Source: an uncultured bacterium (GTDB taxonomy: Bacteria; Oederibacteriota; PGYV01; CAWJRG01). Taken from it: a DNA stretch of 64,000 nt. The stretch lies in assembly GCA_963845185.1 (NCBI GenBank), contig CAWJRG010000005.1, positions 672,001 through 736,000 of the forward strand. Direction: 5' to 3'. This document shows positions 17,070 to 58,967 of the stretch, piece after piece. Numbering within the stretch: position 1 is the stretch's first letter; every line of letters begins with the position of its first letter. Below the pieces are notes generated by a model. The model had not been told where the DNA came from, ran no database searches, and saw nothing but the letters and a program-made list of their open reading frames with translations. Both the position numbers and the translations under genes were made by a program.

Positions 17070-17733
17070 TTAGAAATAATATCTTATTGCAAGCCCGCTG
17101 AGAGTAGCTCCATTCAGGGCCAGCGTGGCATTGGTTCCAAAAAGGCATGTGTGTTTTCCGACAACTTCATACTCAAGATATGACTGGGTATAGCTTTCCC
17201 CATAATTCTCTGTAACGTTAAGTGCCACATTCCCGCCTATGCTGATATTCTCCCGGCAGGAAAGAAACCACGTGCCCGATAAGATATTCAACTTCAAGCT
17301 TAAATACCGCGCCCGCAGTAATAGTATAGCTTGAATTCTTCAGGTTTACGGTTTCATTTGCCTTTGTGGCAGTATTGTACTCGGCATTATTCGTTTCTGA
17401 AAATGTCCTGGCGTAACCGCCTGTTATCCCGGGAATAAAATTGACATGAAGCCCGCCTACTATTTTCACCGGCATTACAAGCCCAAAACCCGTGGACACG
17501 GAGTCATTCATGACATCGCCTGAATTTGCCGAACTATAATTGATTGACAGCGGTATTTCGTATCCTGACCAGTTCTTTGAGACAAACCTGAAGATTGGCC
17601 CGTTGCTTATGCCGATGCTGTACAGCCCATTTTGGGACATATAATCAAGCTGCTCCTGGTCGCTCACATCAATGCCGGCAAACGCGTAAGACGCCAAAAA
17701 TAGTACTGCAATTACCACTAAAATTCTTTTCAT
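17070..17733 (-). pseudogene. Putative outer-membrane beta-barrel protein (copy 2), split by a +1 frameshift that is probably a sequencing error
   Basis: ORFs 17218-17733 and 17070-17297 match the N- and C-parts of 14187-14867; extra A in GAGAATATC at 17244-17252. Confidence 0.8.
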
Positions 17734-17794
17734 ACAAAACCCTCCTTAATTTTTATATTTTGCACAGTGTGCATAATTTTATGCCGGCAAATTT

Positions 17795-18094
17795 TCATGG
17801 CACCATTTCCAGGTCTCTGCCAAAATGCCTCCTGTTAACCCATCCGGTATTGCCGTTGCGCATTTCGATTAAAACCGCGTTGGGCCTTACCCTTAGAATT
17901 TTTACTTTGGTGCCCGGGTGCAGTACCGCAATGCTTTCTCCTGCAAGCCCGTCCATGCTCCAGACTTTGATTACATCGACATTGCCGTAGGTATTTACAA
18001 TTGCCCATCTTGCAGGCTTCTTTACCACTACCATGCAGGAAGCAAATACAAGCAGCGCGAAAAACAAGAGCGCAAAAGTCATAATTTTCTTCAT
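17795..18094 (-). CDS. Lipoprotein with SH3b-like domain
   Basis: AGGAGG RBS, MKKIMTF...FASC lipobox, IAVLHPGTKVKIL...GNTGWV. Confidence 0.75.
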   Translation of the reverse strand: MKKIMTFALLFFALLVFASCMVVVKKPARWAIVNTYGNVDVIKVWSMDGLAGESIAVLHPGTKVKILRVRPNAVLIEMRNGNTGWVNRRHFGRDLEMVP

Positions 18095-18119
18095 TTTTTC
18101 CTCCTTTCTGTAATTGTAT

Positions 18120-18245
18120 TGTGGAACCCCGCCGACAGTAGTCGGCGGCTCCTTAAAAACCACCGGAGGTTATAAAGAGTTCCCTCCGGAAAGGTATAAT
18201 TCATCCCCCAACTCCGGTTGGGGGATTTCTTTCTGGATTAGCTTA
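18120..18245 (-). promoter_or_regulatory. Three-hairpin 5' leader, candidate cis-regulatory RNA
   Basis: Hairpins at 18203-18226, 18163-18189 and 18129-18148 directly upstream of the SH3 lipoprotein RBS. Confidence 0.4.
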
Positions 18246-18424
18246 TATGACGGTAAAAAACAACGGTTCGTTTACACAATACTTTTTTTATCGTGTTTCA
18301 AAATACGCCTGCCGTCGAGGCTGCAAAATATGTCGGAGTTTTATAGTTTATTCAGAAGTTAAAACAATAGAGCCCAAAGCAGGAATTTGCTTTAGGCCCT
18401 GTTGTTTTTATTTTCAAACCTGTT

Positions 18425-56153: not shown

Positions 56154-57381
56154 ATCGTATAGCCTCTACCGGGTCAAGTTTTGCGGCCTGCATTGCAGGA
56201 TAAATTGTGGATAAAAACGAAAGTACTATTGAAGCCGCAGGTATTATTATTAAATCCTTGATATCCATTGCAACCGGCATTTTGTCTATGTAGTAAATGC
56301 TGCCACCGCCGGGCATTGAAATCGGATGCTGCTTTAAAAACACGCATATTGCTATGCCGGCAGCAACTCCTACAAAAGTTCCTATAACGCCTGTCGCCAC
56401 GCCCTGGGTCATGAATATGTTCATTATATTTGCCCTTGTCGCGCCCATTGATTTTATTATGCCTATGTCCTTTGTTTTCCTCATCACGACCATTATTAAA
56501 GTGCCCGCTATGTTAAAGGCCGCCACGAGCACTATCAGTGTCAGTATTATGAACATGGTCAGCTTTTCTATCTGCAAAGCCTGAAAAAGGTTTTTGTTCA
56601 TGGACATCCAGTCCCTTGCCCAGAGGTTTTTGAATTTCCTGTGAATTTCCGTAGCTACAAGTGCCGCGTTTTCAAGCTTGTCGAGTTTTATCGCGATGCC
56701 TGTTATTACGTTGCCCTTGTCAAACAGCTTCTGTGCAGTATCAATGGAAACATAGGCGAAAGTCGAATCGTAATCGTACATGCCGGATTCAAAAACGCCG
56801 ACTATTTTCATCTTGCTCATTTTTGGCATAAGCCCGGCCGGCGTCTGGACAAAAACCGGTGATACAAGGATAATGTCGTCGTTTATATCCACGTTTAAGT
56901 TTGTCATAAGCTCTTTGCCTATTACGATGCCGCGCTGTCCGTCCGGCAGTTCCTTGCTTATAAAATCAATGTCGCCCTTTATCATGTTTTTGCTTAAATT
57001 ATTTACTTTTGTCATGCTTTCCGGTATTACTCCCCAAAGCATTATGCCTTCCACGCTTTCCCTTGACTTTAGCATCACCTGCCCCATGAAATAAGGGGCA
57101 ACGCTTTTTATATGTTCCATTTTGCTTATCTTGTCGACCGTGTCCTGATAATCGCTTATTCCTTCCTTAAAATAGGACGAAGCAATTACATGGGCATTTG
57201 TGCCTATGACTTTGTCCCTTATGTCGTTGTCAAAACCGTTCATTACGGAAATAACAACTATAAGGGCGGTTACGCCGAGCGCAATACCGGATATAGATAT
57301 GAAGTTTATCAGGGAAATAAACCCTTCTTTTTTGGACCTTAAATACCTGAGTCCGATAAAAACCGTAAATCCGTTTGCCAT
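56146..57381 (-). CDS. Lipoprotein-releasing ABC permease LolC/E
   Basis: GLRYLR, GIALGVTALIVVISVMNGF, VAAFNI, PAMQAAKLDPVEAIRYE. Confidence 0.92.
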   Translation of the reverse strand: MANGFTVFIGLRYLRSKKEGFISLINFISISGIALGVTALIVVISVMNGFDNDIRDKVIGTNAHVIASSYFKEGISDYQDTVDKISKMEHIKSVAPYFMGQVMLKSRESVEGIMLWGVIPESMTKVNNLSKNMIKGDIDFISKELPDGQRGIVIGKELMTNLNVDINDDIILVSPVFVQTPAGLMPKMSKMKIVGVFESGMYDYDSTFAYVSIDTAQKLFDKGNVITGIAIKLDKLENAALVATEIHRKFKNLWARDWMSMNKNLFQALQIEKLTMFIILTLIVLVAAFNIAGTLIMVVMRKTKDIGIIKSMGATRANIMNIFMTQGVATGVIGTFVGVAAGIAICVFLKQHPISMPGGGSIYYIDKMPVAMDIKDLIIIPAASIVLSFLSTIYPAMQAAKLDPVEAIRYE

Positions 57382-57393
57382 TAATACTCCTAT

Positions 57394-57458
57394 GTTTGGT
57401 GTTTCAGGTTAAATGTTGAAAGTAAAAAACATTAAACCTTAAACTTTTACCTTTAAAC
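57394..57458. repeat. Inverted array of degenerate 7-bp repeats
   Basis: GTTTGGT GTTTCAG GTTAAAT GTTGAAA, then AAACATT AAACCTT AAACTTT TACCTTT. Confidence 0.65.
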
Positions 57459-57460
57459 AG

Positions 57461-58967
57461 TTATTTGCCTTCCGGACGCATCAGTGGAAACAAAATTACG
57501 TCCCTTATTGACGGCGAATTTGTAAGAAACATTACAAGCCTGTCTATACCGATGCCCAGGCCGGCCGCAGGCGGCATGCCGTATTTCAGCGCTTCCACAA
57601 AATCCTCATCCACTGTTTTAAAAACCTCGCCTGTGGTGTCTGTATCTATTTGTTCCCTGAACCTTTTCTCCTGCTCTTCAGGGTCATTAAGTTCGGAAAA
57701 TCCGTTTCCTATTTCCCTTCCGAATATATACGGCTCAAACCGCTCCACAACTGCTTTGTTTTTTCTGCTGACCTTGGCGAGCGGCGATATTCTCTATTGG
57801 GAAATCCGTTATAAAAACAGGCTGTATGAGCTTGGGCTCGACAAACTCGGCGAATACGAGCTCGGTAAGTTCGCCCCTGCGCGTGCCTTTTTTTACCGCT
57901 ACCTGCTTTTCTTCGAGTTTTTTTATCAGGTCTTCATCCTTGCTTTTTTCCATGTCTATGCCGCCGTATTCTTTTATGGCGTCCATCATGGTTATTTTTT
58001 TCCACGGCGGAGTCAAATCTATTTTTATGCCCTCGTACTCTATAACGCGCTTGCCTAGTATCTTGTCAGCAAGGTGCACAACGAGGTCCTCTGTTATCTG
58101 CATCACCCTGTTAAAATCAGCGTACGCCTCGTATAGCTCAAGCATGGTAAATTCCGGGTTATGCTTTATGGATAGGCCTTCGTTCCTGAAATTTCGGTTA
58201 ATCTCATAAACTTTCTCAAAACCGCCTACTAAAAGGCGCTTTAAATAAAGCTCTGGAGCTATTCTCATGTAAAGCTCCATATCAAGGGCATTATGATGTG
58301 TTGTAAAAGGCCTTGCCTTCGCGCCTCCGGGTATCGGCTGCATCATTGGAGTTTCCACTTCAAAGAAACCAAGCGAGTCAAGAAAGTTCCTTATTTCTTT
58401 TATTATCTTTGAGCGGATTATAAAAGTCTCTTTTACATCGTCGTTCGCTATCAAGTCAAGGTAGCGTTTCCTGTAACGTATTTCCTTGTCCTTTAATCCG
58501 TGCCACTTCTCAGGCATGGGCAAAAGCGACTTTGTCAAAAGCTCAAACCTGGTTACTTTCATTGTTAATTCCCCGGTATGCGTTTTGAATATGCTCCCCT
58601 GCGTTCCTACTATGTCGCCTATATCGGTTTTTTTGAACCTGTCATACGCTTCGTCGCCGAGTATGTCCTTTTTAAAATACAATTGTATTGTCCCGGAAAA
58701 ATCCTTTATATTGGCAAACGTGGTTTTGCCGTGGCTTCTTACGCTGACAAGCCTGCCGGCTGTTTTTTCCTCTTCTTTGCTTTCCGTGTTATCTGCTATA
58801 TTTTGATGTTTTTCTTTTACCTGCGCAATACTGCCGGTTCTCTCAAAGAAATATTTATAAGGAGTGTCGTTATTCCCAATAAAAAATTTTAAATTTTCCT
58901 TTTTACTTATTATCATGTCAGCTTCGTTTTTCTGTTCCTGAGGCTGCTCTTTGTTTTTCTCATCCAT
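57461..58967 (-). CDS. lysS: Lysine--tRNA ligase (class II); split by a +1 frameshift that is almost certainly a sequencing error
   Basis: [54 protein letters not shown]; deleting one A in GAGAATATC (57786-57794) restores FPIEISPLAK. Confidence 0.95.

Follow-up and report, generated by a model that had tools for sequence, protein, structure and literature searches.

Introduction

Passages of three reports describe errors that nanopore sequencing leaves at methylation motifs: about 70% of the errors of early basecallers lay at Dcm motifs (CCWGG) (Wick et al. 2019, PMC6591954), errors linked to GATC, GANTC and type I motifs were found at only some occurrences of these motifs (PMC12392509), and the motifs GCWGC and GCTGG were recovered from the errors (PMC10687267). 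Here we describe a comparable pattern in the assembly GCA_963845185.1 of an uncultured bacterium of the Oederibacteriota, in which three genes within a stretch of 64,000 nucleotides (hereafter the window; contig CAWJRG010000005.1, positions 672,001 to 736,000) lose their reading frame at one 8-mer, AGAATATC. The motif is AGATATC, written in the assembly with one surplus A. As in those passages, the breaks cluster at one short word that agrees with a methylation system, affect only part of its occurrences and lie mostly in coding sequence; what differs is the motif, GATATC preceded by A, and the type of change, a one-base insertion that breaks the frame.

EcoRV cuts GATATC at its middle, and M.EcoRV methylates the first A of this word. 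In programmed +1 frameshifting of the prfB type, a gene is spread over two overlapping frames, which are united when one base is skipped, and the genes considered here have the same appearance. Passages of three further reports give GATATC as the target of both EcoRV and M.EcoRV (PMC4081073, PMC3526282, PMC4417163). The results below make it very probable that the genes are intact in the organism and that the extra A arose in the long-read consensus, as an error at methylated GATATC. This class of artefact is already known; here the motif is refined and the responsible enzyme family, that of an ordinary restriction-modification system, is found.

Three genes interrupted at the same word

A preliminary description made from the letters of the window had reported a 9-mer, GAGAATATC, at 17244–17252 (–), 31135–31143 (+) and 57786–57794 (–). 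The 9-mer is present at all three places, the frame is lost at each (Table 1), and homologues or a paralogue rejoin the genes once one A is skipped. In the first gene (17733–17070), the paralogue at 14187–14867 aligns by residues 1–168 and 168–226 in two frames, with the junction at 17248/17249, and the paralogue reads PGDISIG, the sequence that removal of the A had been said to restore. In the aldo/keto reductase gene, residues 1–363 of a homologue (P0121, 91% identity) align as far as base 31137; the C-terminus of this homologue, ISSWMPKVDNVLGKGM.FPG, with which its sequence ends as KIEISSWMPKVDNVLGKGMDFPG, is found in the +1 frame of the gene from 31138 onward. In lysS, residues 1–392 of a 501-residue homologue (P0001) match one frame (88.5%) and residues 393–501 match the next (91.7%), and the alignment omits exactly one base, at position 57791.

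The lysS frame was uninterrupted in all 46 top lysyl-tRNA synthetase (LysRS) homologues inspected and at 14 of 14 relatives' loci; LysRS hits bear the names Candidatus Goldbacteria or Goldiibacteriota. One relative (L011) reads GTC GAG ATA TCG at the site, which is the intact form GAGATATC, and among six syntenic genes of a 12.5-kb stretch in common with L050, the closest relative, only lysS changes frame. The genome gave no further lysyl-tRNA synthetase of class I or class II, the class I family giving no match over the cut-off. Of 30 relatives, one (G019; 98% complete, three contigs, same order) showed no DNA match to lysS and the other 29 showed one; G019 may use a different lysyl-tRNA synthetase.

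Intact words were also found in the window. The CGAGATATC that the preliminary description had placed at 20290–20297 (–) is indeed there, and a second intact AGATATC lies at 51141–51147 (–). A blastx sweep, which covered 56% of the window and itself missed the near-terminal break of the reductase gene, found no further breaks. Because GAGAATATC occurs only 48 times in 3.5 Mb on both strands, chance is excluded as the reason why three breaks share it.

Frame switches across the genome

The genome (3.50 Mb, 11 contigs, 99% complete) was scanned with a codon-position model that yielded 606 candidate junctions. A total of 74 scored at least 7 above the two-gene reading (53 of the +1 type and 21 of the –1 type), and part of these are surely natural junctions. 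AGAATATC lay within the candidate interval at 11 of the 53 top +1 junctions, compared with an expectation of 0.33. Counted per site, a +1 frame switch accompanied 13 of 193 occurrences of AGAATATC, compared with 0/162 for CGAATATC (C context), 0/182 for GGAATATC (G context) and 4/222 for TGAATATC (T context), an excess of AGAATATC over the other contexts that was statistically supported (Fisher test, P = 1.2e-5). Among the four T-context flags, one (C5:689290) was the break of the window gene again, two were false (C9:992886, an IS copy, that is, a copy of an insertion sequence, with an internal deletion, and C9:70748, two separate genes) and one (C1:219611) was plausible. Single-base neighbours of the word stayed at background (AGAATATA 0/284, AGAATATG 1/181, AGAATATT 1/300, AGAATC 1/1172), and the cut-site words AGATTATC (0/99) and AGATAATC (0/134) showed no +1 breaks. 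When all 8-mers were ranked, AGAATATC came first (P = 1e-13, uncorrected; background 0.32%), and the stop-start words found at natural junctions ranked below it.

This coding-statistics test was adopted because an alternative, in which a longer frame was sought after deletion of one base, flagged only 7 of the 48 GAGAATATC sites and overlooked two of the three breaks in the window. A paralogue-split test used alone was noisy, with 7/192 sites in the A context, 4/222 in T, 1/161 in C and 2/182 in G, and 2/271 for intact AGATATC.

The 9-mer and the preceding purine, which the preliminary description had taken to define the sites, proved too narrow. The base before the 13 switching sites was G in 6/48, C in 5/38, A in 2/76 and T in 0/31; CAGAATATC breaks as often as GAGAATATC, and A or G also precedes 27 of 50 intact GAGATATC words. 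The required context is hence the 8-mer AGAATATC.

Fifteen sites were retained, comprising the 13 flagged sites and two that the frame-switch test missed, namely the reductase gene and an IS transposase gene. Support from homology was strong at seven of them: the three window genes, rpsA, apgM (profile alignment 1–307, then 312–403), a crtI-family gene (117–344, then 351–491) and the transposase. Two others showed a single-base gap relative to paralogues, two were kept on the basis of the statistics and of the same domain type on both sides, and the support for the remaining four was weak. Two candidates had been dropped from the list, C9:650487, where neither side has a family, and C10:179006, which is native and in frame. 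Twelve of the 15 sites are in sense orientation, with 2, 7 and 3 sites in codon phases 0, 1 and 2, respectively, and three are antisense. Since 181 intact AGATATC words lie in long frames, about 8% of AGATATC sites are affected. The link to GATATC that had been suggested from the window alone is consequently upheld, with the context A-GATATC in place of R-GA-GATATC and with this small share of sites affected.

A multi-copy element provided an internal control. A 1.7-kb IS (PF13701) is present in five copies, of which four carry AGATATC and one carries AGAATATC. The surplus A is the sole internal difference between this copy and three of its sisters, and the remaining sister carries an additional C at GGACC (G000:C9:386088) that 4/4 sisters lack. 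This comparison, which needs no outside reference, settles which base was inserted and where. About 106 kb of the genome, largely IS elements, lies in repeats that have at least two other copies at 99% identity or more.

An EcoRV-type restriction-modification pair

The preliminary description had predicted a GATATC-type methyltransferase in this genome, and a search of the genome gave a D12-class methyltransferase gene next to an EcoRV-type endonuclease gene (Table 1). The endonuclease matches PF09233 (E = 2e-116, 388 bits) over profile positions 2–244 of 244, is 37% identical to EcoRV, and among solved structures matches EcoRV alone (8/8 hits). It retains K38, E45, Q69, N70, D74, D90, K92, G182–T186, N188 and G190, which include the catalytic residues of EcoRV and, with T187A as the one change, its recognition loop (182–190). 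D74 and K38 are named for EcoRV in a passage of PMC4081073. The methyltransferase (PF02086/TIGR00571) is closest to M.EcoRV, the enzyme encoded beside EcoRV on pEC159, with 55% identity.

The two systems are thus alike in both enzymes and in the adjacency of their genes, with specificity here deduced from homology, and they differ in arrangement. The genes described here are chromosomal, stand in tandem with a 4-base overlap and adjoin a transposase gene, whereas those of pEC159 diverge around a helix-turn-helix gene; no controller gene was seen beside the pair. They also differ in the residue at position 187, which is T in EcoRV and A here. From this likeness, the pair would recognise GATATC and would place N6-methyladenine on its first A; the error motif and the mild depletion of GATATC (observed/expected 0.75) lend this specificity indirect support. 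The doubled A of AGAATATC is the first A of GATATC. The family is present in 1 of 40 relatives and in none of 14 control genomes, and a match between the error word and the enzyme is hence unlikely to have arisen by chance.

Table 1. Positions of the interrupted genes, control sites and restriction-modification genes
Feature	Position	Strand	Remarks
AGAATATC	17244..17251	–	surplus A within AA 17248–17249; probable true word AGATATC; frame switch of paralogue alignment at 17248/17249
gene, secreted or outer-membrane-like protein	17070..17733	–	split solely by extra A; about 70% identity to paralogue at 14187–14867
intact paralogue, 226 aa, reference	14187..14867	–	PGDISIG; homologous place GGC GAT ATA, without GATATC
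AGAATATC	31136..31143	+	surplus A within AA 31138–31139
aldo/keto reductase gene, C-terminal 4Fe-4S domain	30049..31201	+	Pfam PF00248 and PF13187; extra A shifts last 20 codons
AGAATATC	57786..57793	–	surplus A within AA 57790–57791
lysS, class II lysyl-tRNA synthetase	57461..58967	–	sole lysyl-tRNA synthetase found in genome
intact AGATATC, control site	20290..20296	–	
intact AGATATC, control site	51141..51147	–	inside TamB-family gene; gene in single frame relative to L050
EcoRV-type endonuclease and D12-class N6-adenine methyltransferase	G000:C5:453517-455273		same contig, about 217 kb before window
Type II pair, MvaI/BcnI family	G000:C4 (L023:976-2769)		
Type II pair, EcoO109I family	G000:C5 (L019:732-2295)		
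Type II pair, MutH/Sau3AI family	G000:C6 (L018:1414-2854)		

Origin of the extra base

A fraction of the AGATATC words is written as AGAATATC in the assembly, and an EcoRV-type Type II pair is encoded outside the window. In the explanation that we consider very probable, this pair would place N6-methyladenine on the first A of GATATC, long reads of native DNA would be miscalled at the modified A when its 5΄ neighbours are A-G (GA being read as GAA), and the error would enter the consensus where the miscalled reads outvote the opposite strand. We propose that this strand vote is the reason why only about 8% of the sites carry the error. The platform was probably nanopore, and 11 contigs for 3.5 Mb together with 74 candidate breaks are consistent with an unpolished long-read assembly. 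The motif-specific insertions, the IS control and the encoded methyltransferase all support the artefact that the preliminary description had suspected. The affected genes include both lysS and rpsA.

Several observations weigh against this explanation. The nanopore errors in the cited passages are mostly substitutions checked against a reference, whereas the extra A is judged here by homologues and IS copies, and a literature search that covered few subscription journals gave no paper on insertions at GATATC; supplementary motif tables could name the motif. The sole public run (X1, share 0.06) spans 56343–56617, which includes none of the sites, and we infer methylation and the platform because no reads or independent assembly cover them; metagenome contigs, searched for exact copies of the lysS site with and without the extra A, gave no match. 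Intact AGATATC is the majority form, with 271 occurrences genome-wide, and GATATC is only mildly depleted (observed/expected 0.75). Contig C5, which makes up 23% of the genome, holds 8 of the 15 sites (P = 0.01), an excess for which differences in coverage or strand balance may account. One break lies in a T context (C1:219611), and a –1 break adjoins an intact AGATATC (C1:226580).

A basecaller or polisher might simply have a weak spot at AGATATC that owes nothing to methylation, the EcoRV-type genes being coincidental. Methylation is deduced here, indels seen elsewhere in multi-copy repeats are of the ordinary homopolymer kind, and the required 5΄ A lies outside the EcoRV site, all of which would fit such a weak spot. 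However, the full hexamer is required, since AGAATATA, AGAATATG, AGAATATT and AGAATC remain at background, the run of A measures just 1 to 2 bases and is no homopolymer, and the matching enzyme family occurs in so few relatives; we accordingly regard an error without methylation as unlikely.

It is much less probable that the extra bases are real mutations, arising where methylated AGATATC is a hotspot of slippage in vivo or as scars of EcoRV-type cutting, and fixed or partial in the population. One IS copy that is unlike its four sisters is what a fresh mutation would produce, and lesions that look real occur elsewhere in the genome, an example being C9:589924, which differs by 4 bases from its paralogues. 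However, the sole lysS found would then be knocked out and rpsA split in one consensus, the IS copy is otherwise unchanged internally, and the extra base lies away from the EcoRV cut in mid-GATATC, with AGATTATC and AGATAATC free of +1 breaks. A variant of this idea, in which +1 slippage at methylated AGATATC would be frequent and reversible in vivo and the methyltransferase would thereby switch genes in part of the population, would mean that an EcoRV-type methyltransferase turns even lysS and rpsA on and off, and we give it slighter credence still.

That AGAATATC is a signal for programmed +1 ribosomal frameshifting or transcriptional slippage in lysS and other genes, which the preliminary description had rightly placed far behind an artefact, is hardly credible: the breaks do share one word and 12 of the 15 sites are sense, but the sites keep no fixed codon phase or strand (three phases in sense, 3 sites antisense), 93 AGAATATC words sit within long intact frames, 150 bases or more from their ends, the break is kept in no relative examined (14/14 lysS loci and L050 are continuous), the sister IS copies do not have the A, and, unlike in programmed frameshifting, the affected genes are unrelated and have no common function.

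The practical consequence concerns at least 15 genes of this reference genome, lysS, rpsA, apgM and the crtI-family gene among them, which should be regarded as intact rather than as pseudogenes. The pattern of errors is also indirect evidence of an active EcoRV-type methyltransferase in an uncultured lineage. The practical value is a quality warning and an indirect hint of methylation; new biology is not required.

Further error words and other observations

Two other words were enriched at the top candidate junctions. GGWCC lay within 11 of 53 +1 intervals (expected 2.35) and 7 of 21 –1 intervals (expected 0.94), and CCSGG within 11 of 21 –1 intervals (expected 2.59); these figures are post hoc, because the words were chosen after the top intervals had been seen. 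The genome encodes three further Type II pairs (Table 1), and the MvaI/BcnI-family and EcoO109I-family endonucleases are each adjoined by an N4/N6 methyltransferase. EcoO109I recognises RGGNCCY. CCSGG is described as the BcnI cut site in a passage of PMC4081073. We regard the pairing of GGWCC with the EcoO109I family and of CCSGG with the MvaI/BcnI family as leads; since each of the two words has a counterpart among the further restriction families, assembly errors may by themselves suffice to read part of a methylome.

The pair of the MutH/Sau3AI type is accompanied by a strong depletion of GATC (observed/expected 0.37), despite which the genome-wide candidate breaks showed no excess of errors at GATC. 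Depletion was also observed for CTAG (0.47) and GGCC (0.61). Further adenine methyltransferases of the genome comprise three that are Type I-like and several others, and no 5-methylcytosine methyltransferase was found in this 99% complete genome.

The product of the first interrupted gene had been labelled an outer-membrane protein. A signal-like N-terminus and a C-terminal Phe suggest such a role, whereas Pfam gave no family for the protein (neither piece tested gives a name), and we keep the label as a prediction. This gene and its 70%-identical paralogue, both unnamed and secreted-like, lie on either side of a gene for a 618-residue WD40-repeat protein (14187–17733).

The 4-base surplus relative to paralogues at C9:589924 is in another gene. 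The 16.9-kb contig G000:C3 contains five candidate frameshifts, or about 30 per 100 kb compared with about 2 on the large contigs, probably as a result of low coverage. Elsewhere in the window, a 640-residue fusion protein, galactokinase-like at its N-terminus and followed by a nucleotidyltransferase domain, is encoded at 39153–41075, and one GH2 and two GH9 glycoside hydrolase genes are located at 3103–5835, 27145–29433 and 60871–63747.

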